From an uncultured Rikenella sp. (lineage in GTDB: Bacteria; Bacteroidota; Bacteroidia; Bacteroidales; VadinHA17): DNA of 64,000 nucleotides. The position numbers and the translations under genes are program-made. The stretch covers positions 4,565 through 68,564 of the forward strand of contig CAZUIF010000016.1 in assembly GCA_964621005.1 (NCBI GenBank), read 5' to 3'. Below, piece after piece: positions 5,013 to 31,600 of this stretch (position 1 is the first letter of the stretch; every line of letters begins with the position of its first letter). The notes below the pieces were generated by a model. That model was not told the DNA's origin, searched no databases, and saw only the letters and a program-made list of their open reading frames with translations.

Positions 5013-5019
5013 GGTTGTA

Positions 5020-7474: not shown

Positions 7475-7478
7475 CCGG

Positions 7479-8429: not shown

Positions 8430-8470
8430 ACCAGACTTGCCGGTACATTCCCGGCCTGAGAAAGAGCATA

Positions 8471-10171: not shown

Positions 10172-10250
10172 TGCCGAAATATTGAAATAACAGTAAAAAT
10201 CCAAAATTGGATTTTTCTTCCGACAATGAAATATTTTAAGTGAGAAATTT

Positions 10251-11696: not shown

Positions 11697-11749
11697 TTTC
11701 TGTTCTTAAAAATTGCGGTGCAAATTTGAGATCATTACCATAAGGTTTA

Positions 11750-11788
11750 CGTAAAGATATGATCTTTACATATAAAGATTTTGTAAAG
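11750..11788 (-). promoter_or_regulatory. Cluster of CTTTAYR direct repeats resembling KdpE half-sites, upstream of trkH
   Basis: On the minus strand, CTTTACA (11782-11788) and CTTTATA (11771-11777) are spaced 11 bp apart. A third copy, CTTTACG (11750-11756), lies 21 bp further on, and an inverted CTTTACA sits on the plus strand at 11764-11770. The cluster is 54-92 bp upstream of the trkH ATG, and a near -7 box CAAATTTG sits at 11721-11728. Confidence 0.4.
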
Positions 11789-11850
11789 AACGAACTTCCT
11801 CACGGCTCCGGCGGGTTATGACCTGGCAGAGTCTGGGCCGCAGGTAACAG

Positions 11851-14057: not shown

Positions 14058-14080
14058 CTGCTCTTACTTTTTCACAGTCA

Positions 14081-14088
14081 CAAAGTTA
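14081..14088 (-). promoter_or_regulatory. Candidate -7 promoter box TAACTTTG for the kdpD-like operon
   Basis: Exact TAnnTTTG on the minus strand, 24 nt upstream of the ATG at 14057. Confidence 0.35.
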
Positions 14089-14117
14089 AGCTTTATGAAG
14101 TGAAATGCCGGCTCAGT

Positions 14118-14137
14118 TTGCGAAGCGAATTTCGCAA
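14118..14137. promoter_or_regulatory. Palindrome TTGCGAA-N6-TTCGCAA in the kdpD-like / T9SS-gene divergent spacer
   Basis: Perfect 7-bp inverted arms, about 30-50 bp upstream of the candidate kdpD-like -7 box. Function unknown. Confidence 0.2.
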
Positions 14138-14294
14138 TCAATTCATAAAAAGATTATCAATTTCAGGTCAGAGGGTGAAAAGATTTTATAAAGGCGGTGG
14201 ATGAAAAAACAGCTTCAAATTGCAACCCCGGGGCCTGAAGCGCCGTTTAACAATTTGCATTACAGACCGGCGAGGGTGTGTAGTCAAATGGTTC

Positions 14295-16826
14295 ATGAAG
14301 AAATGGATCCTATATATCATTTCCCTGTTATTGTCGTTGAGTGCCACCGGGCAGAACTGTTCCATTCTCTCGAAGGCTAACAACATCACTCCTGACAAGC
14401 TCTGTTCACCGGTGACAGCCACCTGGACGGTAAGCTATACGGGGGTGAATGATGACGGCTACCCGGTCAGCATACGCTTTGACTGGAATAACGGCACGGT
14501 TCAGACAGTTCCGGCGGTTGAAACATCACCGGGAGTGTTTGAGGCAACTGCCATTAATACGTATACCTCGGCAGGCAATGTCTGCAACTACCATCCGCAG
14601 GCCACCCTGGTGGTCGACGGTGTCCTGTGCACCTCTTCGTCACAGGAACAGATAGTCACTGTATGGGACGATGATGACCACAACGGGGGGCGTATGCACA
14701 TCAACCCACTGGTTTACCCGATCTGTTTTGGCAACAGTGCCAACGTCCGTTTCCAGGACCTGACACAGTTCAACTGCGTGCCTCCCCAGGAGAATGACAA
14801 CCCCAATGTAAGCACACGCTGGATTCAGTGGATTTACGGAACCGACAATACCATGACCGGTCTGCCTGTGACAGTTGATGGCAGAAGCCGGACCTTCCCG
14901 TACATTGACAATATTATTACCCTTACCGGGCCGGTGACCGGGTCCGGTGTCTGGTCTGACGTTATCTTTGTGGCCAGCGACAAGCTGATAGGCCAGTACT
15001 TTGAAGTGACTCTCCGCAACTGGAACTACTGCAATCCCTACGATGATCCGGCATTACCCGGCGGACCCCGTGACAGGGTCAACGGCGACCATCCCCCGGT
15101 GGTGACAACTGCAAGGATACTTATAGTTCCTTATCCTGACGCCACGATAACCCCGGTTGCCCCTATGTGTGCCAATGCAACGCCCGTCACCCTGACAGCC
15201 CGTGATCCCGGAGGAACATGGTCAGGCAGCGGTGTCAGCGGGAACATTTTTGATCCCTCACTTGCAGGACCGGGAACCCATACAATCAGTTATGAAATAG
15301 TAAATGCTGACGGGTGCAGCGACACGGATCAGACAACAATTACCGTTTATCCTGTGCCTGACGCTACCATCCTTACGACCGGGATTGCATGTTCAACCGA
15401 TCCGGTGATCGTTCTCCAGGCCCGTGACCCGGGCGGGGTATGGTCCGGTCCGGGTGTCTCGGGTAATCTGTTTTATCCTGCCGTTGCGGCTGCGGGCAAC
15501 CACCTCATTACATATTCAATTACTGATGCCAACGGATGCACCGATTCTGACCAGGCTACCCTCACTGTGGCTACTCCCGATGCTACGATCACCCCTGTTG
15601 ACACCCTTTGTGAGGACAGTCCAGCCGTTGTTCTGACGGCACGTGACCTCGGCGGGGTGTGGTCAGGCCCCGGGGTGGTAGGCAATCAGTTCATTCCTGC
15701 CCTTGCAGGGGTGGGGAATCATATTATAAAATATGAAATCCTTAATACTGACTGTGCCGCTTCAGACACCGCACTGGTTACCGTCATGGCATTGCCGTCG
15801 ATTATTCTCGACGGTCCTGATACTCTCTTCCTTAACAGTCTCCCGGTTACACTCACTGCATATCCGACCGGAGGAACCTGGTCGGGGCCGGGTATGGCGG
15901 GGAATGTTTTCGATCCGGCAGAAGCAGGCCTGGGAAGTCATACTCTGACATACTCTGTTCCACCCATGAGCTGGGGATGTGATGCCCGGCAGGATCTGAG
16001 AATTGATGTTATCATGCCACCGATGCCCGTGGCAGCTTTCGAGGGCGTCACGGAGGGTTGTGCTCCTCTCACTGTACAGTTTGTCAATAAGAGCATTTAC
16101 GGTGAAAGCTATACATGGGATTTCGGCGACAAACAATACTCGTCCGACAAGGATCCTGTGCATACATATTACGTTCCGGGGAACTACATTGTAAAACTGA
16201 CTGTTCACAACATTGCGGGGGAATCGGTTGCGAACGGCGTTGTAACAGTGCATCAGAATCCGTCAGCCATCCTTGATGCCTATCCCACGAAAGTGGTCAA
16301 CAATGAACAGATAGTGATCTTCTACAGCTATTCCTACTTTGCTGACTCCTGGCTTTGGAAGTTCGGTGACGGGGAAACCTCCACTGAGGAGAATCCATGG
16401 CATAAATATGAGTCACCGGGAACATATACCGTTTCGCTGCATGTTTCAACCGCCAACGGCTGCGTGGATTCAGCAACGATGGTGACACCGGTGGTGGTTG
16501 AATGGAAGATGGGTACCATTAAATTCCCGAATGCATTCAAATGGAATGAATCAGGTCCGACCGGGGGTGAATGGAGTGAAGGGGTAAACCCTTATATGGA
16601 TGAGGTTTTCAGGCCTTTCTTTGAGAATGTTATTGAATACAGGCTTCAGATCTTCAACCGGTGGGGTACGCTCATATATGAGAGCCATGACCTGAAGAGG
16701 GGATGGGACGGTTATTTCGGTAACGGCAAACTGGCACCTCAGGGTGTATATGTCTGGAAGGCTACGGGAAGGTACGCCGACGGTGAATACTTTGACAAGG
16801 TGGGGGATGTAACCTTCCTGCATTAA
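14295..16826 (+). CDS. Large secreted adhesin-like protein with tandem Ig-like repeats, two PKD domains and a T9SS type B (gliding-motility-associated) C-terminal domain
   Basis: I chose the start at MKKWILYIISLLLSLSATGQ (14295). PKD signature YTWDFGDKQYSSDKDPVHTYYVPGNYIVKLTV. The C-terminus FNRWGTLIYESHDLKRGWDGYFGNGKLAPQGVYVWKATG...GDVTFLH is typical of type B CTDs. Confidence 0.8.
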   Translation: MKKWILYIISLLLSLSATGQNCSILSKANNITPDKLCSPVTATWTVSYTGVNDDGYPVSIRFDWNNGTVQTVPAVETSPGVFEATAINTYTSAGNVCNYHPQATLVVDGVLCTSSSQEQIVTVWDDDDHNGGRMHINPLVYPICFGNSANVRFQDLTQFNCVPPQENDNPNVSTRWIQWIYGTDNTMTGLPVTVDGRSRTFPYIDNIITLTGPVTGSGVWSDVIFVASDKLIGQYFEVTLRNWNYCNPYDDPALPGGPRDRVNGDHPPVVTTARILIVPYPDATITPVAPMCANATPVTLTARDPGGTWSGSGVSGNIFDPSLAGPGTHTISYEIVNADGCSDTDQTTITVYPVPDATILTTGIACSTDPVIVLQARDPGGVWSGPGVSGNLFYPAVAAAGNHLITYSITDANGCTDSDQATLTVATPDATITPVDTLCEDSPAVVLTARDLGGVWSGPGVVGNQFIPALAGVGNHIIKYEILNTDCAASDTALVTVMALPSIILDGPDTLFLNSLPVTLTAYPTGGTWSGPGMAGNVFDPAEAGLGSHTLTYSVPPMSWGCDARQDLRIDVIMPPMPVAAFEGVTEGCAPLTVQFVNKSIYGESYTWDFGDKQYSSDKDPVHTYYVPGNYIVKLTVHNIAGESVANGVVTVHQNPSAILDAYPTKVVNNEQIVIFYSYSYFADSWLWKFGDGETSTEENPWHKYESPGTYTVSLHVSTANGCVDSATMVTPVVVEWKMGTIKFPNAFKWNESGPTGGEWSEGVNPYMDEVFRPFFENVIEYRLQIFNRWGTLIYESHDLKRGWDGYFGNGKLAPQGVYVWKATGRYADGEYFDKVGDVTFLH
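15138..16025 (+). repeat. Four tandem ~73-74-codon coding repeats (Ig-like modules) inside the T9SS type B protein
   Basis: Units start at 15138, 15360, 15579 and about 15798 (periods 222 and 219 nt). Consensus: DATI.P....C....PV.LTARDPGG.WSGPGVSGN.F.P..AG.G.H.I.Y.I....GC.D.D...(L/I)TV. Confidence 0.7.
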
Positions 16827-16829
16827 AGG

Positions 16830-19781
16830 TCACAGTTCTTTTTCTGAAGGTTTCATTATCACACCTATCTTCTTTTTCCCGTCTATCATCACATTAAGCG
16901 GCTCAGGGAATATTACATGCCTGAGCAGGTCATCCTCATATACTGTCTCTGCCGAAGCAAGGAAATCATAGTCGATATGCCCGTCACCGCGGGAGGGATT
17001 AACATTAAAATACCCGACCCTGAAAGCGGTCAGGTTTTGAAAGAAGTGGGTCCCCTGGCTGGGGTCGATCCGGTAATTTTCCAGTCCGGATTCAACAATG
17101 ATCCTTGCACCTGAAATCTGCTGCCATTTTATCGGAATTCCCCTCCAGACGTCAGTTGAACCCCATCTGCCCGGGCCAATCAGGATATAATTTATGTCGA
17201 GGTTGATCAGTCTTTCATTTATCCCCTCGATTCTGCCGGCAATCTCGGTATTCTTTGAGGCATCAAAGTTCTCGGTTCTCACGTATACCACATCGCGCAG
17301 ACCACCTATTGTGCCATTGCCAAGGGCCAGACCTGAATACACTACCGTTTCGCTGTGAGCGATCTGTTCGAGCCTGTATTTTATTGTCTCGTAGTTTTCA
17401 ACTATAGGCCGGATCTGCAGGAGATTAAAAACAACAGGCTTTTTACCGGAAGGATCCATATTTGCCGCAAATTCTATTTCCACCGGATTGTTAAGCTGCT
17501 GCTGCCCGATCTCAAGGACCTTCTTCAGGATACCTGTCAGCGGGAAGAGTTCATACCTGAGGATGTTTGAAAAGGTAATCACCTTACGTCCTCCCCTGAC
17601 CATCTCGTCACGGATGATGTCATCCTGGTAATCGTAAGTTGAGGCGGCAAACTTCAGTGAACCGTCTTCCTCCGCTTCACTTACCTGCAGTTTAAGCAGG
17701 TTGACCGAATCGTCAGTGCTGGGCACGAAGCTTGAGGGATTGAGGTCCAGGGAATAAAACTCCTGCTGGGTCTCCCTCAGGGCCATTCGTGTATCGGAAA
17801 GCTGGATTATCTTGCCGGGGTATTCAGGTGAGAACCTCAGGGAGACGCCGCCATCAACGATGTATTTCCCAAGACCGAAGGCAAGATTGACATAACCCTC
17901 TTCCGGCTTTTCAGGTTCTATCGGATAGAAGTTGACTGACCGGGCAACTCCTGAGAGTGTAGGGTAGAAACGGTTGCCGTACTGCTGACCGCACACTTCC
18001 TGCAGGACTATCCCCATTTTTTCTTCTTCAAGCTGATTTGCGGTAGCCTTCATGTAGTTCCTGCTACCCCTGAAAAAGACAGATGCATAGACGCTCTTGA
18101 TTGCCACGCTGAGGAGTTCGAGCATGACGATGTCATTTTCCGCCTTGGGTATCATGTATGTGGAATATACTCCTGCAAATGGCTGAAAATGTGAGTCTTC
18201 AAGGAGACTGGAGGAGCGTATTGCCACAGGTCCGCTGATGATTGAGATAAACACCAGCAGATCCTTGTGTATCCTGAAAGGGAGTCTTGCCTTCACAAAC
18301 GCATCAAGTATCCCGCTGTCATTTCTTTCCGAAAGACCAATCCCGTACAGGTTATTTTCAGCCATGAATTCATCGAAGACGTCGGTGCTGAGGACAACGG
18401 TCCGGGGTATTGAGACGATAGTATTTTCAAAGCATTCGGAGAGCCCGAACTTCTTGATAATATGGTCAAGAAAAGCGAGGCCGCGGGCTTTGCCCCCCAT
18501 AGAACCTTCTCCTATCCTGGTGAAAGTAAGGTATTCGTCGAAGTGCTCCCGGTAAAAATCGGCGATAATCCCGTGACCTTTGCTTCGCCTGAAACTGGCG
18601 ATAGAATCAAAGATGAACCGCCTGGCCTGGTCAAGGCTGGAAAAATCATCCAGTTGTATCTCCTTCAGGAATTCTGCGAGTGAAAAAAGTGCGCGGGCGT
18701 ACAGCCATTTTGAGAGATGGTTCCTGGAGAGGTGGTATTTCAGGGAGTTATCAGGAATCTCAAAGAGTTTACGCTGAAATGTCTGAAGGTCAGTTATTCG
18801 CGCAATTTCCGCTCCGCTGTCCGGATCAGTAAAAACAAAATCACCGAATGAAAAATTCTTTCTGAGGAGGTTCTCCAGATCTGCGGCCAGTGTCATGGCG
18901 TTGCTGTCGATAAAGGCATTCCCGTATTCAGGGACAAGCTTTTCATTATCGGTTCCGGAAGAGTGTATTATGATCGGGATATTGGCATCATACTCCCTTA
19001 CAAGCCTGAAGAGATCCATGAAAGTGCCTCTTTTCCTTTTCTCGTTATGATACTGGTCAACATCACTGATCACTCCGAGCAGCTGCATTTTGTGCTTTTC
19101 AAAAATGGCAACCGCCTCCTCGTATCCGGTGGCAAGAAGGACCTTGGGTCTGCCTCTCATCTGCATCATTTTCTGATGCTCATTGAGACCCTCGATCATA
19201 TACTGCCGCGACTGTTCAAGGATTATCGTGTAAATATGGCGCAGAAATACCGATGCGAGCCTTACTGAGCTCTCAACAAGCAGTATTGCCTGAACTCCCT
19301 CATGGATGGCATCTTCGTCTACGTTCAGCCTGTCTTCCACAAGACTGATTACCGGCAGAAGGATATTTGTGCTCCCCAGCCAGTTGAAAACGTAGTCAAT
19401 GCATGACATCTCCTTGCTGTCAAGTCTCAGGGCAGTCTCACGGGAGACAGGAGCAAGGATCACAATCGGTATTCCGGGCCACTCTTTTTTTATCTTCAGC
19501 GAGAGGTCGAAAGGGTCCATATCGCTGACACTCAGCATATTTATGACAAGGTCTATTTTGCCTCCCGCAAGTTTTTCCAGGGCTTCAGCCGCAGATGTGG
19601 CGTGGATGAACTGGGGCGGATAGCGGAGGTTGAAAGAGACGTAGTCATTGAAGACCTTCTCGTCAATTTTTCCGTCCTCCTCCATAATGAAGGCATCGTA
19701 CCTGCTGCAGATGAGAAGGACGTATCTGACCCTCTTCTGCATCAGAAGCTCGAAGGAGGTCTCTCTGAAGATATTTTTCAC
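16830..19781 (-). CDS. Pseudo-receiver + receiver-like + PEP/pyruvate-binding (PPDK_N ATP-grasp) domain protein, 983 aa
   Basis: GTG start 3 nt after the gdhA stop. ATP-grasp motifs MGGKARGLAFL, VAIRSSSLLEDSHFQPFAGVYSTY and MGIVLQEVCG...SGVARS. The N-terminus has two CheY-like folds. It is a paralog of the 21277-25950 core. Confidence 0.75.
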   Translation of the reverse strand: MKNIFRETSFELLMQKRVRYVLLICSRYDAFIMEEDGKIDEKVFNDYVSFNLRYPPQFIHATSAAEALEKLAGGKIDLVINMLSVSDMDPFDLSLKIKKEWPGIPIVILAPVSRETALRLDSKEMSCIDYVFNWLGSTNILLPVISLVEDRLNVDEDAIHEGVQAILLVESSVRLASVFLRHIYTIILEQSRQYMIEGLNEHQKMMQMRGRPKVLLATGYEEAVAIFEKHKMQLLGVISDVDQYHNEKRKRGTFMDLFRLVREYDANIPIIIHSSGTDNEKLVPEYGNAFIDSNAMTLAADLENLLRKNFSFGDFVFTDPDSGAEIARITDLQTFQRKLFEIPDNSLKYHLSRNHLSKWLYARALFSLAEFLKEIQLDDFSSLDQARRFIFDSIASFRRSKGHGIIADFYREHFDEYLTFTRIGEGSMGGKARGLAFLDHIIKKFGLSECFENTIVSIPRTVVLSTDVFDEFMAENNLYGIGLSERNDSGILDAFVKARLPFRIHKDLLVFISIISGPVAIRSSSLLEDSHFQPFAGVYSTYMIPKAENDIVMLELLSVAIKSVYASVFFRGSRNYMKATANQLEEEKMGIVLQEVCGQQYGNRFYPTLSGVARSVNFYPIEPEKPEEGYVNLAFGLGKYIVDGGVSLRFSPEYPGKIIQLSDTRMALRETQQEFYSLDLNPSSFVPSTDDSVNLLKLQVSEAEEDGSLKFAASTYDYQDDIIRDEMVRGGRKVITFSNILRYELFPLTGILKKVLEIGQQQLNNPVEIEFAANMDPSGKKPVVFNLLQIRPIVENYETIKYRLEQIAHSETVVYSGLALGNGTIGGLRDVVYVRTENFDASKNTEIAGRIEGINERLINLDINYILIGPGRWGSTDVWRGIPIKWQQISGARIIVESGLENYRIDPSQGTHFFQNLTAFRVGYFNVNPSRGDGHIDYDFLASAETVYEDDLLRHVIFPEPLNVMIDGKKKIGVIMKPSEKEL

Positions 19782-19784
19782 GGT

Positions 19785-21128
19785 CTACACCACTCCCTGG
19801 GCCAGCATGGCCTCGGCCACCTTGACGAAGCCTCCGATATTGGCTCCGTCCACATAGTTTATGAACCCGTCCTTATGGGTTCCGTACTTCACGCATGTGG
19901 CATGTATCTCTTTCATTATCCTGTGAAGGCGGGTGTCAACCTCTTCGCGTGACCAGGACAGGCGCATTGAATTCTGAGTCATCTCCAGGCCTGATGTTGC
20001 CACGCCTCCTGCATTGGCAGCCTTGCCGGGGCCGAACAGGATCTTGTGATGGAGAAAGACGTTGACAGCATCCGGCGTTGACGGCATATTTGCTCCTTCC
20101 GATACCACGAAGCACCCGTTTTTGACAAGTGTTTCAGCATCAGCGCCTGATATCTCATTCTGTGTTGCGGAGGGGAGGGCAACCTGGCACGGGACATCCC
20201 ACGGGGTTGATTTGCCTTCGACATAGGTACAGCCGTATTTATCGGCATATTCCTTTATACGTCCTCTTTTTACGTTCTTCAGGTTTTTAACGAACGCGAG
20301 CTTCTCTTCGTTTATTCCGTCCGGGTCATGGATATAACCGTTTGAGTCAGAAAGTGTAACAACTTTGGCACCCATCTGGATCGCCTTTTCTGTTGCAAAC
20401 TGAGCGACGTTACCGGATCCGGAAACAGCGCAGATCTTACCCCTGAGGCTGTCACCCCTGGTATTCAGCATTTCCTCGGCAAAATAAACCTGGCCATATC
20501 CGGTGGCTTCAAGCCGTATGAGACTGCCGCCCCATTCAAGCCCCTTACCGGTAAGCACACCGGTGAATTCATTGCGGAGTCTTTTGTACTGTCCGAAGAG
20601 GAATCCTATTTCCCTTCCCCCGACGCCTATATCACCTGCAGGAACATCTGTGTCAGCACCTACATGCCTGAAAAGCTCACTCATAAATGACTGGCAGAAG
20701 CGCATGACCTCCTGGTCACTCTTCTCCTTGGGGTCAAAGTCTGATCCCCCTTTTCCACCTCCCATCGGAAGGGTGGTGAGGCTATTCTTCAGAACCTGTT
20801 CAAAGGCAAGGAATTTCAGGATACCAAGGTTCACCGTCGGATGGAATCTCAGGCCACCCTTATAGGGACCGATGGCGCTGTTCATCTCTATCCGGTATCC
20901 CTTGTTGATCTGGATTTCGCCTTTGTCATCAACCCACGGGACTCTGAAAATAATGACCCTTTCAGGTTCGGCCATCCGCTCCAGGATCTTTGCAGATTTG
21001 TATTTCGGATTCTCAAGGATAAAAGGCATAAGAGACTCGGCGACTTCTTTCACTGCCTGGTGAAATTCGACCTCACCGGGGTTTTTGGCAATAATCCTTG
21101 CCATGAATTCATCAACATGATTGGACAT
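19785..21128 (-). CDS. gdhA: NADP-specific glutamate dehydrogenase
   Basis: Full-length GDH with LPMGGGKGGSDFDPKEKS, GADTDVPAGDIGVG and GSGNVAQFA (Rossmann). Confidence 0.95.
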   Translation of the reverse strand: MSNHVDEFMARIIAKNPGEVEFHQAVKEVAESLMPFILENPKYKSAKILERMAEPERVIIFRVPWVDDKGEIQINKGYRIEMNSAIGPYKGGLRFHPTVNLGILKFLAFEQVLKNSLTTLPMGGGKGGSDFDPKEKSDQEVMRFCQSFMSELFRHVGADTDVPAGDIGVGGREIGFLFGQYKRLRNEFTGVLTGKGLEWGGSLIRLEATGYGQVYFAEEMLNTRGDSLRGKICAVSGSGNVAQFATEKAIQMGAKVVTLSDSNGYIHDPDGINEEKLAFVKNLKNVKRGRIKEYADKYGCTYVEGKSTPWDVPCQVALPSATQNEISGADAETLVKNGCFVVSEGANMPSTPDAVNVFLHHKILFGPGKAANAGGVATSGLEMTQNSMRLSWSREEVDTRLHRIMKEIHATCVKYGTHKDGFINYVDGANIGGFVKVAEAMLAQGVV

Positions 21129-21276
21129 AACAATAGGTTTTTAAGGGGTTATGGGTACTTCGATAATTTCATTAAATTTCCATAATTCAAGTCTATCTTC
21201 AAAATATATTCAGCTTTTTTTTAACTTTCATAATAAATTGTTTTGGCTGACCGCAGGGGAGCGGTACTGATCCGGG

Positions 21277-24200
21277 ATGGAGGATATTTCGAGATTGCAA
21301 AAGGAAATGCAGAAACTCCTGGCCGAAAAAATCCAGAGCCAGAAGGGACTTTCCATTGTTTATGCCATAAACAGGATCATAAGCAGGAAGAAATCTGTTG
21401 GTGAGACTCTTTCTGAAATTGCAAGGGAGATACCCAAGGGATGGCAGTACTCTGAATACGCCTATGCCCGCATTAAGTTTGACGGTCATGAGTACCGCCC
21501 CGCAAACTTCCGTGAAACCAGGTGGATACAGAAACAGATCTTTGAGACTTTTGACAAGAAATGGGGAGCTATAGACGTATTTTACACCAAGCAATTTCCC
21601 AGGGCTGATGAGGGTCCCTTCCTTCATGAAGAAAGGCAGCTGCTTGAAAATATTGCTACAATAGTCAGCAACTATCTGAACTCCCTGATAGCATCTGATA
21701 CGCCCATGGGATCTGACCTGGATACGGCAGTCACATTCGAACGGACCCGTAAGATCAGCGAGGAGCGAAATATTGATGATGCCCTTTTCCGGATATGCAG
21801 GAACATGCCCAGGTCGTGGCAGTTCCCGGATTATGCTGTAGCCCGTATAGAATATGACGGACGGGAGTACCTCAGTTCCGACAGGGATTACTCTGACCAT
21901 GAGTGGAGTTTGCGGGAGGATTTTACAACCATTGACCACAAATCCGGAACCATAGAATTCTTTTATCTCAGGGGATTTCCGGCCACCTACAGGGAAACTC
22001 ACAAGGACTCGGAAAAGGAACTTCTCTGGAACATGGCGAACCTGATAACCGGATTTATCAACATTATCAAGGGGAATGAGATAAGGCAGCCCTCTGACAG
22101 GGAGGAGAAACAAAACGAAGATGCAAGGACCGACAACCGGATATTTTCATGCATAAATGAAATCTCAAAAAGCCTCAGAAACGGTCACTCTCTTGAAACC
22201 ACCTTTTCGGAAATCATTGAACTGATTCCGATGGCTTTCAGGTTCCCCGAGCATATAGTATGCCTGATTACTTACGATAATGCCGGGTACAGGTCGCCAG
22301 GATACAGGGAAACCCCCGTCTTCCTGGAAGCAGCCTTTAAGACGATCTCGCTGAAAAGCGGGTCAGTCCGGATCGACTTTACAGGGGATGAACCGGAAGC
22401 CGGGGAGGAACTGTTTCTGGAGGAGGAGAAGCAGTTTTCCGAGACCCTTGCCCTTCTGATCTCCGGATTCATTAACCTGATACACGGCCTTGATTCCGTC
22501 ATCGCCACCCAGGAGGGACTGAAGGAGATACTTTATGAGAAAACAGAACGCCTGAAGGAGCTGTCATGCATTAACCAGACTACCTCGATACTACAGTCAG
22601 AAAAAACCGTTGAAAACGCCCTGAAGCGTATAGTTTACATCCTGCCCGATGCCTGGCAGTACCCTGAACACACCGTTGCAAGGATCAGTTTTGACGGCAA
22701 GGAGTATATGTCGCCCGAATTCATAGTGACAAAATGGAGGCAGAGGCAGCCGTTCCTTACAATAGACGACAGGTTCGGCGAGGTTGAGATTTACTATAAA
22801 AAGGAATTTCCTGACATTGATGAGGGGCCCTTCATGAAGGAGGAGCGTGACCTGATAAACAATATTGCCACACTCATCTGCAATTACCTTAATACGGTGC
22901 AGGGTGAGGTAGCCATAAAAAAATACAGGTCAGATGAGGAACTGAAGCAGAAATATGAGGCTGCACGCGACTTCCTGATAAACAAAAGAAAACTGCTGCA
23001 GAATTTTCTCGAAAAAAACAATTACGACCGTGATATTTTCCATGACCTGATGAAATTCAAGGTCAGGGAAATTCTTATAATCTCCAATCTTTATGATGCC
23101 TACAGCCTGGAACGGGAAGGCAAATTCTCCGATTATATTCTCGGCGTCTATTATCAGCTGAACCTTACATCGATTCCCAGGGTAACAGGAGTTTCTTCAT
23201 TTGAGGAAGCATTCGAGAAACTTTATTCAAGGCACTTCGATCTTATTATCATAATGGTTGGGATTGACAGGAAAACCCCGATGGATATCGCCGGGAGGCT
23301 TAAATCGCTTTACAAGTATATTCCCATCTATCTTCTTTTAAACAACAACCAGTATGTCGGGTTTTTCCAGGGAGAAAAGAGGCGAACCGGACTGATTGAC
23401 AATGTTTTCGTCTGGAACGGGGACTCCAGGATATTCTTTGCAATGGTAAAGCAACTGGAAGACTATGTCAATGCAGATAATGACACGAAAGTTGGATACA
23501 GCAGGATAATCCTCCTGGTAGAGGATTCTCCGAAGTATTATTCAAGGTACATTCCTCTTCTTTATCACTGCGTCATGGAGCAGACCCGGCGCATCATCGA
23601 GGATGTGAGCACAATGGACGAGCTCTACAAGGTTCTCCGCCTGAGGGTTCGGCCCAAAATACTTATGGCTTCGAACTATGAGGAGGCTTTGCAGATATTC
23701 GACAAATACAAGGAGTTCTTCCTTTGCCTTATTACTGATATAAAATTTGAAAAGAATTCGAAGTTCGATGAAAAGGCCGGGTTTGACCTGGTAAGGTATG
23801 TAAAGTCGGAGATACCTGACCTGCCAACAATAATTCAGTCATCAGACCGCAGCAACGAAACCCTGGCAAAGGATCTCAACTGTGTGTTTATTCACAAGAA
23901 TTCCGATACCCTTGCACAGGATATCAGGAATTTCATCAGCTATAACCTCGGTTTCGGGGATTTCATCTACCAGGACGGATCCGGAAGAACGATAGGCACG
24001 GCAAAGAACATGAATGAGTTTGAAATGCAGCTGCAGTCTATCCCTACAGAGACTCTTCTCTATCACGCCAGCAGGAATCATTTTTCACTGTGGCTTACTG
24101 CCAGGGGCGAGATTCAGCTTGCACGGGAAATAGCTCCCAAAAAGATAAGCGATTTCAATGATCCGGAGGGACTTCGTAATTACCTGGTCAGGATCGTGAA

Positions 24201-25950
24201 ACAGCTCAAGTATGAGAAGAACAAGGGCAAGATACTTGACTTTGATGAAACACTTATCACGGAAGAGAGCAATATAATACAACTCTCTCCGGGATCACTC
24301 GGGGGCAAGGGTCGCGGACTGGCCTTCATACATACACTGATATACAACTTCGACATATCCCATTATGTTCCCGGCGTCAATATCAAGGCTCCGAGAACCT
24401 TTATTATCGGCACGAACGAGTTCGAGGAATTTCTTGATAATAACATGCTCAGGACAAGTATTTATTCTGAGACAGACTATGAGAAGATCAAGGAGTTGTT
24501 CATCAGGGGTAGGCTGACTCCTGAGCTTGAGAACAAGCTGAGGATCATCCTGGGCAAGATAAAGAAACCGCTTGCTGTAAGGTCGTCAGGGCTCTTCGAA
24601 GACTCACTGATGCAACCCTTTGCCGGTATCTTTGAAACCTTTCTTGTACCCAACAGCAATGAGGACATTGAGGTTCGCCTGAATCAGCTCTCAGATGCCG
24701 TTAAACTTGTATATGCTTCAATCTATTCTGAGACGGCCCGGGGATATATCAATGCCATAAACTACAAGATTGAAGAAGAAAAAATGGCAGTCATAATCCA
24801 GGAGGTTGTTGGTGAACAGTATGAAAACTACTATTATCCCCATATCAGCGGGGTTAGCCAGTCATATAACTATTATCCTTATGGCCATATGCAGCCCGAA
24901 GACGGATTTGCAGTCATAGCTGTCGGTCTGGGAACATATGTTGTGGAAGGGGAAAAAGCCTTCAGGTTTTCACCGAAATATCCGAACCTTGAAAACAGTA
25001 CTCCGCGCGATCAGTACATGAACTCGCAGGTGGAGTTTTATGCCATTGACCTGAGAAAGAAGGAGCTTAACCTTCTTGAGGGCGATACCGTGGGGCTGGC
25101 TCGTCTCAGTATAGAGGATGCAGAGCGCCACGGGGTTTTAAAGCACTGCGCATCAGTTTATTATGCCGAATCAAAAACCATTTATGCCGGACTTGACAGG
25201 GCCGGACCGAGGGTAGTCAACTTTGCTGACATTCTGAAGTATGATTACATACCTCTGGCCAAATCGCTTGTTGAGATCCTCGATATTGTCAAGGAGGCCC
25301 TTGGTACCCCGGTAGAGATTGAGTTTGCAATAGACCTGGAAAAGGACAGCAACTACAAGGCCTCGTTCTACCTGTTGCAGATCAAGCCTATCATCGGGGC
25401 TGCAATTGATTACGAGGTAAACATGGAAGAGATCGACCGTTCCCGTATAATGCTTTATACCGAAAAGAGCATGGGTAACGGCCTGATAAATGACATCAGG
25501 GATGTGATCTTTGTCGACAGGGAGACGTTTGACAAATCGAAGACGATGGAGATTGCCGCCGAGGTCGATGCCTTCAACCAGCAGATGATCGAAGAAGGGA
25601 AGCAGTATGTACTGCTGGGGCCCGGAAGGTGGGGTACACGTGACAGATGGATCGGGATACCCGTGACATGGCCACAGATATGCAATGCCAGGGTAATCAT
25701 TGAAACGAGCCTGGAGGACTTCCCCCTTGACGCATCGTCGGGCTCACACTTCTTCCACAATGTAACCTCAATGAATGTCGGGTATTTCTCCGTTCAGCAC
25801 CGTGACAAGAGCACAATTCTTGACTGGGATCTTCTCGGCAGGCAGAAGGTTGTTGAGAGGAAGAAGTACGTCACTCATGTCCGGTTCAGCAAGAACCTTA
25901 CCGTCAGGATGGACGGCAAAAAGCGGATCTCGGTAATCACCTGGGAATAG
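21277..25950 (+). CDS. Giant sensor-like protein, 1557 aa: four tandem GAF-like modules + pseudo-receiver + receiver + PPDK_N ATP-grasp + conserved C-terminal module
   Basis: Four N-terminal repeats share WQ[YF][PS][ED][YH]..ARI.[FY]DG.EY ... DEGPF..EE..L..NIA. The receiver has ILLVEDS...LITDIK...IIQSS...FIHK. ATP-grasp motifs LGGKGRGLAF and LAVRSSGLFEDSLMQPFAGIFETF. Confidence 0.75.
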   Translation: MEDISRLQKEMQKLLAEKIQSQKGLSIVYAINRIISRKKSVGETLSEIAREIPKGWQYSEYAYARIKFDGHEYRPANFRETRWIQKQIFETFDKKWGAIDVFYTKQFPRADEGPFLHEERQLLENIATIVSNYLNSLIASDTPMGSDLDTAVTFERTRKISEERNIDDALFRICRNMPRSWQFPDYAVARIEYDGREYLSSDRDYSDHEWSLREDFTTIDHKSGTIEFFYLRGFPATYRETHKDSEKELLWNMANLITGFINIIKGNEIRQPSDREEKQNEDARTDNRIFSCINEISKSLRNGHSLETTFSEIIELIPMAFRFPEHIVCLITYDNAGYRSPGYRETPVFLEAAFKTISLKSGSVRIDFTGDEPEAGEELFLEEEKQFSETLALLISGFINLIHGLDSVIATQEGLKEILYEKTERLKELSCINQTTSILQSEKTVENALKRIVYILPDAWQYPEHTVARISFDGKEYMSPEFIVTKWRQRQPFLTIDDRFGEVEIYYKKEFPDIDEGPFMKEERDLINNIATLICNYLNTVQGEVAIKKYRSDEELKQKYEAARDFLINKRKLLQNFLEKNNYDRDIFHDLMKFKVREILIISNLYDAYSLEREGKFSDYILGVYYQLNLTSIPRVTGVSSFEEAFEKLYSRHFDLIIIMVGIDRKTPMDIAGRLKSLYKYIPIYLLLNNNQYVGFFQGEKRRTGLIDNVFVWNGDSRIFFAMVKQLEDYVNADNDTKVGYSRIILLVEDSPKYYSRYIPLLYHCVMEQTRRIIEDVSTMDELYKVLRLRVRPKILMASNYEEALQIFDKYKEFFLCLITDIKFEKNSKFDEKAGFDLVRYVKSEIPDLPTIIQSSDRSNETLAKDLNCVFIHKNSDTLAQDIRNFISYNLGFGDFIYQDGSGRTIGTAKNMNEFEMQLQSIPTETLLYHASRNHFSLWLTARGEIQLAREIAPKKISDFNDPEGLRNYLVRIVKQLKYEKNKGKILDFDETLITEESNIIQLSPGSLGGKGRGLAFIHTLIYNFDISHYVPGVNIKAPRTFIIGTNEFEEFLDNNMLRTSIYSETDYEKIKELFIRGRLTPELENKLRIILGKIKKPLAVRSSGLFEDSLMQPFAGIFETFLVPNSNEDIEVRLNQLSDAVKLVYASIYSETARGYINAINYKIEEEKMAVIIQEVVGEQYENYYYPHISGVSQSYNYYPYGHMQPEDGFAVIAVGLGTYVVEGEKAFRFSPKYPNLENSTPRDQYMNSQVEFYAIDLRKKELNLLEGDTVGLARLSIEDAERHGVLKHCASVYYAESKTIYAGLDRAGPRVVNFADILKYDYIPLAKSLVEILDIVKEALGTPVEIEFAIDLEKDSNYKASFYLLQIKPIIGAAIDYEVNMEEIDRSRIMLYTEKSMGNGLINDIRDVIFVDRETFDKSKTMEIAAEVDAFNQQMIEEGKQYVLLGPGRWGTRDRWIGIPVTWPQICNARVIIETSLEDFPLDASSGSHFFHNVTSMNVGYFSVQHRDKSTILDWDLLGRQKVVERKKYVTHVRFSKNLTVRMDGKKRISVITWE

Positions 25951-25970
25951 TAAAAGCAGCATTTATAAAA

Positions 25971-25998
25971 AAGTACCCGGCCAGTTGACCGGGTACTT
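25971..25998. terminator. Bidirectional terminator hairpin between convergent genes
   Basis: Perfect 10-bp stem aagtacccgg / ccgggtactt with an 8-nt loop. An A-run lies upstream and a partial T-rich tail downstream. Confidence 0.55.
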
Positions 25999-26032
25999 CG
26001 TTAATTCATTCTGACAAAGCCTTATCTCCGGA

Positions 26033-26863
26033 TCAGGAAGCCGGTTTGAACACCCAGACCCATCCTGATGACCACTCAGCGTCATCAATAAAGAGGACAA
26101 GGCGGTCAGCCGTAAATTCCTTGATCTGGTAAATTCCCTTATTGCCAAGGCTTGCGCCGCCTGAACCGGGATAGGAACCCAGGATGTCAGCAGGCCCCTT
26201 GATGATAAGTTTGGTAAAGTCGGCATTGAAGCCCCAGGTGCTTCCCGTGACGGGAGTAGCGGTTGGAGAGGCATAATAGGTGAAGTTTGCGCCGCCGTCA
26301 AGGTCAAAGACCATTTTGCCGGAAACATCAGAAGGCGGGCAGCATTCGCCACCTGCGTTCCACCAGAATTCCAGCCAGTTATATCCGGCAACCATGTACC
26401 ACCAGCGTCTGTTATCACCGCCAACCCCGTCGAAAACCCATGTCTTGCCTTCAAGGTTTGCCCCGACGAGTTTATAGTAGGCCTCCGGGAGAGCATGGTC
26501 AAGCTGGTTAATAGTTACCTCTACGCTTTTGGTCGGATAGGTTACATTTGATATGTCGCCATTCTCGATGTAAGGAGTTGTGACATGGAATGTAAAAGTG
26601 CTCTTGCCCGGGATGGGAAAAATCACTTCCACCCTATCTGAGGACTTCGTATCAATTATATAGTCCCAATACCCGGCTATGCCTGGTGTATTCATCCTGA
26701 TAGAGAGCTCATTGCCTCCCGGTGTTGACTGGATCACCTCGACCTGGATATCATTGGGGTCGAAGCTGTTTGAGAGAACCTGCCTGTTCTCTATCGGTTC
26801 GCATGCTGCAAGGAAAAGTGACAGCGCTCCGACGAACAAACCTATTGCTTTATATACTTTCAT
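26033..26863 (-). CDS. SusE/F-like surface lipoprotein of the SusC/D locus (hypothetical)
   Basis: Lipobox LFLAACE. It sits immediately downstream of SusD. The product call rests on position only. Confidence 0.5.
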   Translation of the reverse strand: MKVYKAIGLFVGALSLFLAACEPIENRQVLSNSFDPNDIQVEVIQSTPGGNELSIRMNTPGIAGYWDYIIDTKSSDRVEVIFPIPGKSTFTFHVTTPYIENGDISNVTYPTKSVEVTINQLDHALPEAYYKLVGANLEGKTWVFDGVGGDNRRWWYMVAGYNWLEFWWNAGGECCPPSDVSGKMVFDLDGGANFTYYASPTATPVTGSTWGFNADFTKLIIKGPADILGSYPGSGGASLGNKGIYQIKEFTADRLVLFIDDAEWSSGWVWVFKPAS

Positions 26864-26895
26864 TTTTGTAAAGTTTTAATTTGTTAGACTACCTG

Positions 26896-28611
26896 TTACC
26901 ATCCGGGATTCTGTTCATAGACGCCGTTGGAGAGGCGGATTTCTGATTCCGGTATCGGAACAAGCCCTTTTGTTTCTGGGCGGTAAGCGTTGGTGTACAC
27001 AGCTGCCACCCCTGAATTCATTACGTTACATGGAGTGGAGAAAAAGTTCTTGTCAGCTTTCTCAACATCACCCCATCTTACAAGGTCAAACCATCTCAGA
27101 CCCTCAAAGGCGAGTTCATAAAGTCTCTCCTTCTTGAGGTTATCGAGTGACCAGGCAACCGGATCAAGTCCTGCCCTGGCCCTGACAGCGTTCATGCCTG
27201 TGGCTGTTTCAGTGAGCTCGGAATGCATCAGAAGCACCTCTGCATATCTCAGGTAGTAGAAATCCTGGGCATGCCACAGCTGCATATCCTTGTTCGTGGA
27301 ACCGTAGATATAGTAGAACATACCGCCTACTCCGTCAGCTCCGTTATGCTGCAGGCTTATATACTTCTTGTTGAAGAGGCCTGTTTCATGGTCGCCCTTG
27401 TTTGCCTGGTATCCTCCGGTGCCCTGTTCTGCTTTACCCATTTCCAGCACAGAGCCGAGTTTCCTGGGGTCATCATTAGGCCATGAATTGAAGAATGCAG
27501 AGTGAACGGGTCCCCATCCCCAGCCTTCGGCGAAAGGAACAAGTGAATTGCCCCTGATACCAAAGAAGAGAGCTGTGCGGTTATTGTATTTGGGACCTTC
27601 ATCCCATCCCCAGTTGCCGAATGCAAATCTTTTGGCAAACATGACTTCTTTATTACCTGTACCCACTGTTGAGTTGGGGCCATCCTGGCCGACCCATTCA
27701 AGACCTTCTGTCTCAGCCCAGGGCAGGACGGTTGATCCGGCACTGGTATTGACATAGGAGTACGGCCACAGATTCCTGAAATCAGGTGTAAGTTCGTAGT
27801 GGCTGTTTGCCATCACATCCTCGAGCTGGGTTATTACCTGAGCTTTTGTCAGGCTTCCGCCTTCAGGAAGAGGAAGTTCCGTGGTAGCCTGCTTCTCAAT
27901 GTTTGTCATATAACCCGTATAGAACAGGAATGTGCGTGCTATATAGGCTTTTGCCACCCAGCGGTTGGCGTGACCGTATTCGGCAAGCGGAACTGTCATA
28001 GGGTTAATGGCTGGCATAATTTCAGCAGCTTTTATAAAGTCAGCAGCTATCTGGCTGAATGTCTCGGTGAATGTTGAACGAGCCACATCCCTGGGTGAAC
28101 CGGTAGTGGGAATAAGTGGCATGCCACCGAAGAACCTGGCGGCACGGTACATGAAGAATCCCCTCATGAAGTATGCTTCGCCAAGAGCGGTATTCTTGAA
28201 ATTCTCAGCCTCGGCAGCCGTATTGAAGTAGCTTGAATAGTCAGCCTCAGCCACGGCTTCGATGATGGCATTGGTACGATAAACGCCATTGTAAGTCTGC
28301 TTCCAGAGGTCACTGTATGTATCTTCTGTCGGATCAATGAAGTTGTCACAGTTCTTGGCAGTAATATCATCCGGGCCGCCGCCACCGAGCATATAGTCAC
28401 TCATGAGGTTTGCAGAAACATGTTCCTCGCTGAATACTCCATTGACATACAGGGCGTTATAAGCTCCGGCCATGGCTTCTGTAATATCAGCCGGTGTTTG
28501 GTAAAAGTTGGTAAGATCCTTCTTATAAAGGTTCCGTGTATCGAGAAAACTCTCACAGCCACTTACCAGAAGGGCTGTCGCAGCAACTATAATATATATA
28601 AATTTTTTCAT
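26896..28611 (-). CDS. SusD/RagB-family nutrient-binding outer-membrane lipoprotein
   Basis: Lipobox LLVSGCES and a TPR-like SusD N-terminal pattern (FLDTRNLYKKDLTNFYQTPADI...AYNALY). It starts 14 nt after SusC and ends ...GVYEQNPGW. Confidence 0.9.
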   Translation of the reverse strand: MKKFIYIIVAATALLVSGCESFLDTRNLYKKDLTNFYQTPADITEAMAGAYNALYVNGVFSEEHVSANLMSDYMLGGGGPDDITAKNCDNFIDPTEDTYSDLWKQTYNGVYRTNAIIEAVAEADYSSYFNTAAEAENFKNTALGEAYFMRGFFMYRAARFFGGMPLIPTTGSPRDVARSTFTETFSQIAADFIKAAEIMPAINPMTVPLAEYGHANRWVAKAYIARTFLFYTGYMTNIEKQATTELPLPEGGSLTKAQVITQLEDVMANSHYELTPDFRNLWPYSYVNTSAGSTVLPWAETEGLEWVGQDGPNSTVGTGNKEVMFAKRFAFGNWGWDEGPKYNNRTALFFGIRGNSLVPFAEGWGWGPVHSAFFNSWPNDDPRKLGSVLEMGKAEQGTGGYQANKGDHETGLFNKKYISLQHNGADGVGGMFYYIYGSTNKDMQLWHAQDFYYLRYAEVLLMHSELTETATGMNAVRARAGLDPVAWSLDNLKKERLYELAFEGLRWFDLVRWGDVEKADKNFFSTPCNVMNSGVAAVYTNAYRPETKGLVPIPESEIRLSNGVYEQNPGW

Positions 28612-28624
28612 TATCTGGCTTTAT

Positions 28625-31600
28625 TTAAAATGTTACACTGGCACCAAACATAACCGTTCTCGGGAGGGGATAAAGTCCCAGATCAGCACCTGTAGCCCAG
28701 GGAAAGCCGTCGGGTGAATAGCCCACATCAGGATCCATCCCGTCATACTTTGTGAAAGTATGCAGGTTACTAACAGAAGCATAAACTGATGCACCCTTGA
28801 CCCAGTTCAGGTTTTTCAGGAGATTGCCAAGCCTGTATCCAACTACAACGTTGCTGATTCTTAAAAAGTCGGCATCATGCACAAATATGTCGGAAATCAG
28901 GTTTGTATTGCGGGTAGAGGCATATCCCAGTCTCGGAATTCTGTTTGAGGTGCCTTCACCGTGCCAGCGGCCGAATATCTGTGTTGTATAGTTCTGGGTG
29001 AAATTATCGGCGAAGGATCTATACGACTGCATTACCTGCATACCGAATTTTCCAACCAGGGTAGCGTTTGCATAAATGCCTTTGTACTCTACGTTTAGCT
29101 GAAGTCCCATCTCAAAATCAGGAAGCGGGCTGCCAATCATTACTTTGTCCAGATCATCTATTACGCCGTCCTTGTTCTGGTCAACGAATTTTACGTCACC
29201 GGGGCGCTGGTCCTCAAAATAGGGATTGCCTTCAGGTGTGACCCATGCATCAACATCGGTCTGGTTCTGTAGGAGACCGTCAGTTTGCAGGCCGTAGAAG
29301 AAACCGATCGGGAATCCAACTTCAACTCTTGAAATAGAGGCAGTTCCCTGTGAGAGCTGATGCCCCGGGCCGTTTATAATACCTTCAGCATTGGCAAGGC
29401 GGGTTACAATGTTCGTGTTTTTTGTACCACTTAAAGAACCACCGTAGATAAAGTCCCCAATCTGATTCTTATAATTGATTGTAAACTCAATACCTGCGTT
29501 TTTAATGTCACCGCCATTTATAAAGGGAGCTTTCGCACCCGAGGTACCCAGAATAGGGGCTTCTACAAGCCAGTCTTTGGTCATCTTACGATAATAGTCG
29601 AATGACAGCCCAAGGGTTGACTTGAAGAAACGGGCATCAATACCGATGTTCAGCTGTTCTGAAGTTTCCCATGTAACATCAGGGTTAGGGACGTTTTCTG
29701 GTATTGCTGTCGGTGAAGTGACAAGTTTATCCGGACCAAAATAGTATCCCTGGTCGAGATAATCAATGTTTGAATTATAGATGAAGTTATCAATGCTCTG
29801 GTTACCGTTCTGTCCCCAGCTTGCACGAAGCTTGCCAAAACTAAGCCATGGATTGTTCTTCATGAAATCTTCTTCAGTGAATATCCATCCGGCAGAAACT
29901 GACGGGAAGAAGCCCCAGCGGTTTCCTTTTGCGAAGTTTGATGAACCGTCAGCGCGGAAGACAGCATCAAATATGTATTTCTCCCTGAAGTTGTATGATA
30001 CCCGGCCGTAGTAGGAGAGCAATCCGCCCCCCTGTGCAGCATAATCTGCACCCCAGGTCCCTATTCCGGCAAGAGACTCGGCAACCACATTATCCAGGTA
30101 GGCGTAATCCGGCAGACCGAAAATCGATTTTGTCTTGCTTCCACCAACATTGCTGTTCAGAACATTATCGAGGATTTCATTTCCTGCAAGGACACTGAAC
30201 TTATGTTGTCCTATTGCGAAATCATATGAAACAGTATTTGTTAGGGTAAAATTAATACCCTGATACATTGTCTGCTCAACCCTGTCATTCGCATTATTGT
30301 ACTGGGTTGAAAGCCTGTAGGTGGGAGCCCAGATCCTGTTGTGGCCAAACCATGAGTTTATGCCAAATGATGATCTGATACGAAGATTCTTTACAGGTTC
30401 AATATTGACGTATGCATTTCCCGTGACTGTGTTTCCCTTGCCCCACTGGAAGTTGGAGCGGTTGTAGAACAGCATTGCAAGCGGGTTGGTCTGACCAAGG
30501 GAGATACCTTCGAGGGTGGGAGTAAAGCCGTACGGGTCAGGAGACTTATCCCAGTATGCGGGAAGCAGCGGATTTGTAACAAGTGCATTGTGGAGGTCGT
30601 TCCAGTAGATGTCACCGGTTCCCAGCCATTTGTTCTGAGAATTATTGAATGTAAAGTTTTCACCTATCGTTATAATGTCATGGCTGGCACTTTTAACGAG
30701 CACCATTTCAGAGTTAAGGCGTGCAGTGAGCCTTTTGTAGCCGGCATTTATCAGGTCGCCGCCGAGTATACCTCTCTGGTCAAAGTATGATACCCCGAGG
30801 GCGTAGATCACATCCTTGGAAGAGCCGGAGATATTGATTGAGTGGTTCTGAACAGGTGCATTCTTCATTGACATCTCATCAACCCAGTCTGTTCCTTTCC
30901 AACCGGCCTGTAGTTTTGCCCAGACCTCTTCTCCCAGCTGGGTGCCCAGATTGGCGGGGAATTTGTTGGCGGGGTCATTGAGATAGGAGTTGTTTTTAAG
31001 CACTTCTTCCCAATTGTTCGGAGCCATCTTGTCGTTTAAACGCCCTTCATCCATTATGAACATGTACTCCTGGGCATTGAGTGCAGGAAGCTTTTTGTAG
31101 ATGTTCTGCATCCCGTAGTAGTAGTCATATGTAATAACAGGCGCTGATCCCTTTACTCCCTTCTTGGTTGTAACAAGGATAACCCCGTTAGCAGCCCTGG
31201 ATCCGTAGATTGCTGAGGAAGCTGCATCCTTGAGGACATCAATAGACTCGATGTCAGATGCGTTGAGATAGTCAATGTTTCCGACGGATACGCCGTCAAC
31301 AATGTAAAGAGGAGCAGAATTGCCAATTGTACCGAGGCCTCTGATTGAAACCTTTGTTCCTGCAGCAGGTGCACCGCTGTTCCTGGTGATGCTGATACCG
31401 GTGGCGATACCCTGCAATGCTTCCATTGCAGTGGAGGTATTGAGTTCAGCGATCTGGTCACCCTTGACGTTCAGGTTTGCACCGGTTACGAGGGCTTTTT
31501 TCTGGACACCGTACCCGATTACCACAATCTCGTCGAGGTCGGTGGGTGCATCAGCCATTGTAACATCAACTGAGGCGGAATTGACAGTCACCTCAACAGG

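Follow-up and report, generated by a model that had tools for sequence, protein, structure and literature searches.

Paralogous receiver and ATP-grasp proteins encoded on either side of a glutamate dehydrogenase gene in an uncultured Rikenella sp.

What might explain why a glutamate dehydrogenase gene lies between genes for two large, paralogous proteins that combine receiver domains with an ATP-grasp domain of the pyruvate phosphate dikinase (PPDK) type? This arrangement is found in a stretch of 64,000 nucleotides from an uncultured Rikenella sp. of the Bacteroidales (assembly GCA_964621005.1, contig CAZUIF010000016.1, positions 4,565 to 68,564), which we call the window. Its gdhA gene encodes a hexameric glutamate dehydrogenase (GDH) that scores 762 bits against the NF006929 model of NADP-specific GDH, for which the cut-off is 536 bits, and has the coenzyme region GSGNVAQ...SDS. 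An original prediction, made from the sequence without database searches, placed gdhA between a 983-amino acid (aa) protein, here p983, starting 3 nt after the gdhA stop codon, and a divergently transcribed 1557-aa protein, here p1557, across a 148-bp spacer, and proposed that the two share a colinear core. The open reading frame (ORF) list and the sequence agree with this geometry, and BLASTP aligns residues 2-975 of p983 with residues 580-1554 of p1557 at 36% identity over 978 aa with 7 gaps.

Because genes of this family recur beside GDH genes in other genomes, p983 and p1557 probably represent an undescribed form of ATP-dependent control of GDH. The enzyme links carbon metabolism to nitrogen metabolism, and its post-translational control in anaerobes is largely obscure outside a few model systems. 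Reversible inactivation of GDH in vivo has reportedly long been known from Bacteroides fragilis, with no mechanism attached to it. Through its conserved partnership with GDH the family acquires a definite role that experiments can test.

Recurrent adjacency to glutamate dehydrogenase

How often does the family accompany GDH elsewhere? We surveyed one genome per GTDB species, which yielded 532 confirmed loci, and analysed the best 80 of these, all of the Bacteroidota type and 54-85% identical; GDH was detected by tblastn with GdhA and counted as nearby when within 10 kb. GDH is nearby in 35 of the 80 loci, almost always directly adjacent. Below 65% identity there are 67 loci, and 22 of them have a nearby GDH. 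A downstream GDH gene is present in 16 of the 51 loci that have at least 1.6 kb of downstream sequence, mostly starting within about 0.3 kb. When all neighbouring ORFs were clustered, no other family occurred in more than 13 loci, and the families that reached 13 were antisense artefacts.

At least three arrangements are found, and they differ between lineages. The 13 closest loci have that of the window, with the p1557 gene divergent from gdhA and the p983 gene following gdhA. In another, a GDH gene comes after a p983-like gene. The third is a four-gene block, present in many Bacteroidales (L027, L030, L037 and other loci, at about 4300-14500 per locus), in which a GDH gene is divergent from a p1557-like gene that is followed by a p983-like gene and then by a second GDH gene. 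The GDH divergent from the p1557-like gene is of the window type (GSGNVAQ...SDS, best family NF006929, NADP-specific), and the GDH downstream of the p983-like gene is of a second class, with the motif GFGNVAWG...SGPDG and best family NF010633/PRK14030. The latter motif probably marks an enzyme specific for NAD, as it does in Clostridium symbiosum. From the layout of the four-gene block, each paralogue neighbours a different GDH class, a pairing that the original prediction had overlooked, and the lineage of the window has lost or moved the second GDH gene. The paralogues are tandem-adjacent in 13 of the 67 loci below 65% identity.

The association extends to more distant relatives. Nine loci with family proteins of about 35-40% identity were taken from the hits to P0377, a protein 35% identical to the p983 core, and the named members of that hit list belong to Myxococcota, Ignavibacteria, Desulfobacterales, Acidobacteria and Peptococcaceae. 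GDH is directly adjacent in six of the nine (L082, L084, L085, L086, L087 and L089, the last with a family protein named Peptococcaceae). In L082 (4850-12587) a GAF-ANTAR regulator, a glutamate synthase domain protein, the receiver/PPDK_N gene and an NADP-type GDH gene lie together in this order as a nitrogen-assimilation cluster; in L085 the GDH gene is convergent with the family gene; and in L086 the GDH and family genes overlap by 4 nt, with a glutamate synthase gene near the pair. Some loci also have glutamate synthase and 2-oxoglutarate:ferredoxin oxidoreductase genes nearby. With two GDH genes assumed per 3 Mb, a generous null, the binomial probability of the observed linkage is below 1e-9 in every subset, for loci that are not phylogenetically independent. 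That the adjacency recurs in varied arrangements and clades speaks for selection of the linkage, and the synteny test proposed with the original prediction came out in its favour.

Domain architecture of the two proteins

The features of the locus are collected in Table 1. We modelled full-length p983 with AlphaFold2 from an alignment of 120 sequences of 35-95% identity. The model, with a predicted local distance difference test score (pLDDT) of 87.3 and a predicted template modelling score (pTM) of 0.82, resolves five units, to which all 983 residues are assigned, and a second-substrate domain, whether a triosephosphate isomerase (TIM) barrel (PF02896) or a rifampin-binding domain, is not among them, nor do Pfam or NCBIfam models match one.

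Table 1. Features of the gdhA locus, in positions of the window
Feature	Coordinates	Strand	Basis
p983, 983-aa receiver and PPDK-type ATP-grasp protein, GTG start	16830..19781	-	ORF list, translation
p983 C-terminal module, ~residues 803-983, orphan alpha/beta domain	16833..17375	-	model, conservation
p983 PPDK-type ATP-grasp, ~residues 421-802	17376..18521	-	PF01326, Foldseek
p983 linker, ~residues 311-420, beta-hairpin and helical bundle, DUF5752-like	18522..18851	-	sub-threshold PF19027
p983 second receiver (REC2), ~residues 163-310	18852..19295	-	column counts; PleD-like tandem
p983 first receiver (REC1), ~residues 18-160, aspartate-less	19302..19730	-	(beta-alpha)5 in model; weak Response_reg
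gdhA, NADP-type hexameric glutamate dehydrogenase, 447 aa	19785..21128	-	PF00208, PF02812, NF006929
gdhA/p1557 divergent spacer, 148 bp	21129..21276		sequence, 13 related loci, Rfam, consensus counts
p1557, 1557-aa p983 paralogue with extra N-terminal sensor region	21277..25950	+	ORF list, translation
p1557 N-terminal region, four ~140-aa tandem repeats	21277..23010	+	repeat self-comparison
p1557 REC1 (aspartate-less) and REC2 (full E, D, D, S, K)	23014..23946	+	alignment with p983, column counts
p1557 DUF5752-like linker, ATP-grasp (residues 1007-1375), C-terminal His module	23947..25947	+	PF01326, colinear with p983

The original prediction had recognised a PPDK-type ATP-grasp in both proteins, and the searches agree: PPDK_N (PF01326) matches p983 with an E value of 4e-35 and p1557 with 5e-41, and the closest structures to the p983 ATP-grasp in Foldseek are rifampin phosphotransferase (RPH; 5hv1, E 7e-12), HpeI (9goj, E 7e-10) and PPDK (1dik, E 2e-6). 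K431, R433, R522, E528, D529, E768, E770 and Q789 are invariant in the 120 sequences; their presumed roles in binding nucleotide and Mg are assigned by correspondence with PPDK motifs. Pfam and NCBIfam scans of p983 and p1557 detected no TIM barrel, no swivel domain and no DNA-binding domain, as had been anticipated, and all the motif strings originally quoted are present in the translations.

Following the ATP-grasp is a C-terminal module with the motifs GNG, GPGRWG and S-x-G-(S/T)-H912-F-F; the original prediction had listed it as shared and overlooked its invariant histidine. Residues G821, N855, G871, R872, G881, P883, E897, S908, G910, H912, F913 and Y924 are invariant, and the same invariant residues are found in the p1557 core. 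Modelled by itself, the domain reaches a pLDDT of 90.8 and a pTM of 0.89, and in the p983 model His912 starts a helix (911-919) behind the loop that follows a strand (892-898). We considered whether GPGRWG might denote a LOG/SLOG-like fold; Foldseek shows no such fold and the idea was dropped.

Two units of the p983 model have the CheY-like (beta-alpha)5 fold, with Foldseek matches to PleD and to single-receiver structures, and the N-terminal half of the protein resembles the tandem receivers of PleD (E 1e-6). In Pfam, Response_reg is matched only below threshold, at 22 bits against a cut-off of 30 (p983 residues 60-130; p1557 residues 773-865). The acceptor position of p983 REC1 is occupied by Met82. 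This methionine does not vary in either Bacteroidales clade and is present in 41 of 59 distant relatives, so this domain is an aspartate-less receiver. REC2, which has a long alpha-1 insertion in the model, keeps Asp240 and Ser274 in p983, with Ser171 in place of a Mg-binding aspartate and Ser293 in place of the conserved lysine. In the p1557-like clade and the 59 relatives from other phyla, E170, D171, D240, S274 and K293 show little or no variation (58 of the 59 have D171). The REC2 of the p983-like clade is eroding, with K293 kept in 15 of 31 sequences, D171 in 11 and D240 in 26, and this clade seems, from such substitutions, to be escaping phosphorylation control. These column counts agree with the receivers as originally described: a first without an acceptor aspartate, and a second that is intact in p1557 and lacks its lysine in p983.

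Between the receivers and the ATP-grasp lies a linker in which F312, G313, F315, H350, S357, W359 and R363 are invariant. It scores 16.1 and 14.6 bits in the window proteins against a PF19027 (DUF5752) cut-off of 23 (E 0.007 for p1557), and PF19027 is among the precomputed domains of many relatives. The N-terminal addition of p1557, about 578 residues long, consists of repeats that are 28-42% identical to one another, and its orthologues elsewhere have one to four copies. GAF families had been among the searches suggested for these proteins, and a GAF identity of the repeats was not confirmed: the repeats have no Pfam match at E 10, and profiles of 4 and of 22 repeats matched the GAF domains of Nlh1 and Nlh2 in the PDB at an insignificant E of 0.24-1.1. 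We regard the repeats as sensor-like. A 304-aa ORF with a TTG start (21199-22113, minus strand) runs antisense to the 5' part of the p1557 gene; since the p1557 frame is conserved at full length in relatives, with homologues 74-95% identical, this ORF is most likely spurious.

How the proteins might act

How might receivers, an ATP-grasp and an orphan domain work together beside GDH? Our tentative answer, to which we would give a little less than even odds, is that p983 and p1557 are signal-gated, ATP-dependent phosphotransfer enzymes that act on GDH or on the metabolic node around it. We favour it because the ATP-grasp set is invariant, an invariant histidine lies nearby, the signalling inputs vary and GDH is the partner. 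Input would arrive through PleD-like tandem receivers, an aspartate-less adaptor and a phosphorylatable receiver, and in p1557 also through the four N-terminal repeats of ligand-binding type. This input would gate the ATP-grasp, which would bind and cleave ATP and pass a phosphoryl or pyrophosphoryl group to the invariant His912, the C-terminal domain standing in for the missing swivel domain. The group would then be handed to a target at the GDH node, most likely GDH, whose activity would be switched by nitrogen and carbon status. With its sensor repeats and intact receiver, p1557 looks like the sensing member; p983, with a degenerate receiver and a gene geometrically coupled to gdhA, may act constitutively or under the control of p1557. 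The 3-nt gap between gdhA and the p983 gene, with no terminator-like site in between, also speaks for the proposal. The original prediction had likewise proposed an uncharacterised sensor or phosphotransfer pair tied to GDH, for which the synteny now speaks and on which we found no functional study; catalysis, phosphorylation of the histidine and the identity of the target are what we infer.

Comparison with known systems shows where this proposal follows precedent and where it departs from it. All characterised enzymes of this ATP-grasp clade (PPDK, phosphoenolpyruvate (PEP) synthase, RPH, HpeHI and PpsAB) are dikinases in which phosphate is relayed by a histidine (PMC12167813). RPH, the best structural match, belongs to the same PPDK_N family and is a single polypeptide with domains after the ATP-grasp; however, one of those domains binds rifampin and another, at the C-terminus, is a swivel domain carrying the GGxTSH motif. 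Neither is present here, and RPH has no receiver or sensor domains. HpeI, of the same clade, is a polypeptide consisting of an ATP-grasp only, so an ATP-grasp can use a histidine carrier supplied elsewhere (PMC12167813). Unlike the family described here, HpeHI, CreHI and the phenylphosphate synthase PpsAB have a separate swivel or substrate subunit, for which no gene is conserved beside this family, and they serve aromatic catabolism with no link to GDH. PPDK and PEP synthase share the N-terminal nucleotide-binding domain and its motifs (GGK.RG, RSS...ED and E.E...Q.R), but the central phosphohistidine domain and the PEP/pyruvate TIM barrel are missing from p983 and p1557. PleD also has tandem receivers, one phosphorylatable and one an adaptor, ahead of an enzymatic output; in p983 and p1557 the adaptor comes first, the opposite of the order in PleD, and the output is an ATP-grasp rather than GGDEF.

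Two further comparisons concern regulatory logic. In EI-Ntr (PtsP) a sensor domain is fused to a phosphotransfer enzyme of the PEP family that reports nitrogen status as glutamine and 2-oxoglutarate. EI-Ntr uses PEP, a swivel histidine domain and a TIM barrel, and phosphate passes from it to NPr; the elements of this PEP route are absent here, so the analogy is one of logic only. Regulatory kinases encoded beside their metabolic target are known in PpsR/PDRP, encoded beside ppsA, and in AceK. As in those cases, the regulator here adjoins the enzyme that it is proposed to control, although the protein families (DUF299 and the AceK fold) are unrelated and control of GDH is hypothetical.

Several results weigh against the phosphotransfer reading. 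The C-terminal domain has no match in Pfam, PF00391 included, even at E 10; a 25-sequence profile of it found no PEP-utilising enzyme in the PDB, its matches being chance ones to longin domains (E 0.04); Foldseek found no significant fold in the PDB (best E 0.044, TM score at most 0.3); and hhalign against one genuine PPDK swivel segment, from locus L023, returned a probability of 1.6%. We had considered this domain as a divergent swivel phosphohistidine domain because of its beta-strand, glycine loop and (S/T)H at the start of a helix, and with these four tests negative we rejected that identification, which also upholds the absence of a swivel motif in the original prediction. Since the domain cannot be recognised as a swivel, casting His912 as a phospho-carrier is guesswork based on its conservation. 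Neither protein has an identified substrate-binding domain, and no histidine kinase is conserved in the 80 loci or evident as a partner. Finally, three of the nine distant relatives (L081, L083 and L088) have no adjacent GDH and 45 of the 80 surveyed loci have none nearby, so the partnership is frequent and not obligatory.

These same observations lend something to other explanations. If the genes accompanied gdhA through co-regulation or an accident of gene order and acted elsewhere, loci without a nearby GDH would be expected; we nevertheless think this very unlikely, because the adjacency recurs in varied orientation and order, with two GDH classes and in distant clades, and no other neighbour is shared. 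A role at the GDH node could also be exerted on a small molecule: the proteins might be dikinases or ligases, gated by their receivers, that transfer phosphate to a metabolite of the glutamate/2-oxoglutarate node or synthesise a phosphorylated signal molecule. RPH and HpeI, the structures closest to theirs, are dikinases of small molecules; in some loci the linkage takes in genes for glutamate synthase and 2-oxoglutarate:ferredoxin oxidoreductase; and the invariant polar residues of the C-terminal module could form a small-molecule site. We still regard this as unlikely, though worth keeping in mind, given that a recognisable substrate domain and a swivel domain are both lacking, that tandem receivers and multi-repeat sensors are typical of signalling outputs and not of central metabolic enzymes, and that no known pathway step around GDH requires such a reaction.

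Must the ATP-grasp be catalytic at all? A protein that binds ATP, ADP or AMP as a sensor of energy charge, and controls GDH or another partner by binding, would need neither the canonical phospho-carrier nor a second-substrate domain, and it would suit the linkage to GDH equally well. But binding usually keeps less than the full catalytic and Mg set together with the histidine motif, all invariant over a deep family, and a non-catalytic sensor is in our judgement rather improbable. A self-contained phosphorelay, in which the ATP-grasp charges His912 and the phosphate then moves to Asp240 of the second receiver of the same protein or of its paralogue, would turn the family into a substitute for a histidine kinase. 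Such a relay would account for the want of a conserved histidine kinase nearby, for the presence of an invariant histidine and an invariant acceptor aspartate in one polypeptide in most of the family, and for the tandem-adjacent paralogues of distant loci. It would, however, leave the system without an output domain; moreover, members of about 720 aa exist without receivers, and p983 has lost receiver residues yet kept the core, so that we see little chance that it is correct.

Were the phosphotransfer reading right in its strongest form, the family would comprise protein dikinases or kinases of a new class that switch GDH by covalent modification, the first dedicated GDH-modifying enzymes of bacteria, in which a PPDK-type ATP-grasp works with a phosphohistidine-carrier fold not seen before and two-component control is joined to control by metabolites, with the paralogues specialised for the NADP-type GDH and for the second (PRK14030, probably NAD-type) GDH. 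We consider this extended version doubtful. If true, the specialisation of the paralogues would keep the anabolic and catabolic enzymes from being active together. The partnership with GDH also points to an ATP-grasp phosphotransfer module that would function without a canonical swivel domain.

Gene junctions, family breadth and neighbouring genes

The junction between gdhA and the p983 gene reads ...GTG GTG TAG ACC GTG AAA..., with the gdhA stop and the GTG start of p983 (19781) in one shared reading frame, and the 6 nt TAG ACC (junction 19779-19787) are identical in the closest relatives (L001-L003 and L011). The GTG start is credible, since homology between p983 and p1557 starts at residue 2. 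Together with the overlap in L086, the junction suggests translational coupling of the GDH and family genes, and read-through of the stop codon to give a GDH-p983 fusion is conceivable. Rfam returned no match at E 1 or better over 16000-26500, and counts of promoter and terminator consensus sequences are at chance level, with none at the gdhA/p983 junction and none above chance in the spacer; an RNA element or terminator between the genes was rejected on these grounds. TAnnTTTG, the -7 motif of Bacteroidetes, is as frequent in the window as expected by chance and is absent from the 148-bp spacer. Blocks of the spacer are partly conserved across 13 related loci (L001-L014 spacers), for example TGAAAGT..TAA and GAAATTTAAT. 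In most related loci TAAATTTG, which fits the -7 promoter motif, lies upstream of gdhA; a short deletion has removed TAAATTTG from the window and its three closest relatives.

The family is large. An exhaustive search with residues 301-983 retrieved 3577 representative clusters (50% identity) at E 1e-3 or better, and at least 881 at E 1e-30 or better. Members come from Bacteroidota, Desulfobacterota, Myxococcota, Acidobacteriota, Ignavibacteria and Firmicutes. The typical member, of about 990 aa, has two receivers followed by the core. A few, of 1520-1650 aa, have two tandem ATP-grasp cores (P0280, P0336 and P0346), and P0346 ends in a nucleotidyltransferase domain (NTP_transf_2). From the members without receivers and those with one to four repeats, the output module appears as a unit that is combined with variable inputs. 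Database names are either generic ('PEP/pyruvate-binding domain-containing protein') or wrong ('phosphoenolpyruvate synthase', 'pyruvate, phosphate dikinase', 'histidine kinase'), and 'CheY-like' is also in use; with neither a central phosphohistidine domain nor a TIM barrel, the PEP synthase and PPDK names are over-annotations. Censuses of response regulators record the combination of a receiver with PPDK without a function (PMC5847659, PMC4395418), and one of them lists PPDK among the outputs enriched with aspartate-less receivers (PMC4395418). Our literature searches found no functional study of the family, no report of its linkage to GDH and nothing on DUF5752. In this family a known catalytic module is set in a new architecture, together with an orphan histidine domain and a conserved GDH partnership that is absent from the literature searched.

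The original prediction had seen no partner histidine kinase. None is conserved across the 80 loci, but a histidine kinase gene is present at a distance of 2.8 kb (12531-14057). Its product is KdpD-like, with DUF4118, HisKA and HATPase domains and without the N-terminal KdpD domains. The kinase, a KdpE-like response regulator and a TrkH-family potassium transporter are encoded co-directionally (10251-14057), and the group resembles a unit for sensing potassium that is connected to Trk and not to Kdp. Because its own KdpE-like regulator and TrkH gene follow it, this kinase is unlikely to be the partner of p983 or p1557 and was rejected as such; one encoded elsewhere in the genome is possible.

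On the p983 side the locus is flanked by a gene (14220-16826), convergent with that of p983, whose 868-aa product contains PKD repeats and a CHU_C type IX secretion signal, and on the other side (26033-31831) by a SusD/SusC-like pair and a 276-aa ORF without a Pfam match. These surface genes bracket the locus and are unrelated to p983, gdhA and p1557. Elsewhere in the window, a 599-aa ORF (2214-4013) fuses Dak2 and FakA-middle domains with DegV, which places fatty-acid kinase subunit A and fatty-acid-binding subunit B in one polypeptide. A 473-aa protein (61395-62816) has both a class III adenylate/guanylate cyclase domain and an HD domain, and a bacterial GH3-family protein of the acyl-acid amido synthetase type, with GH3 N, M and C domains, is encoded at 58986-60500.

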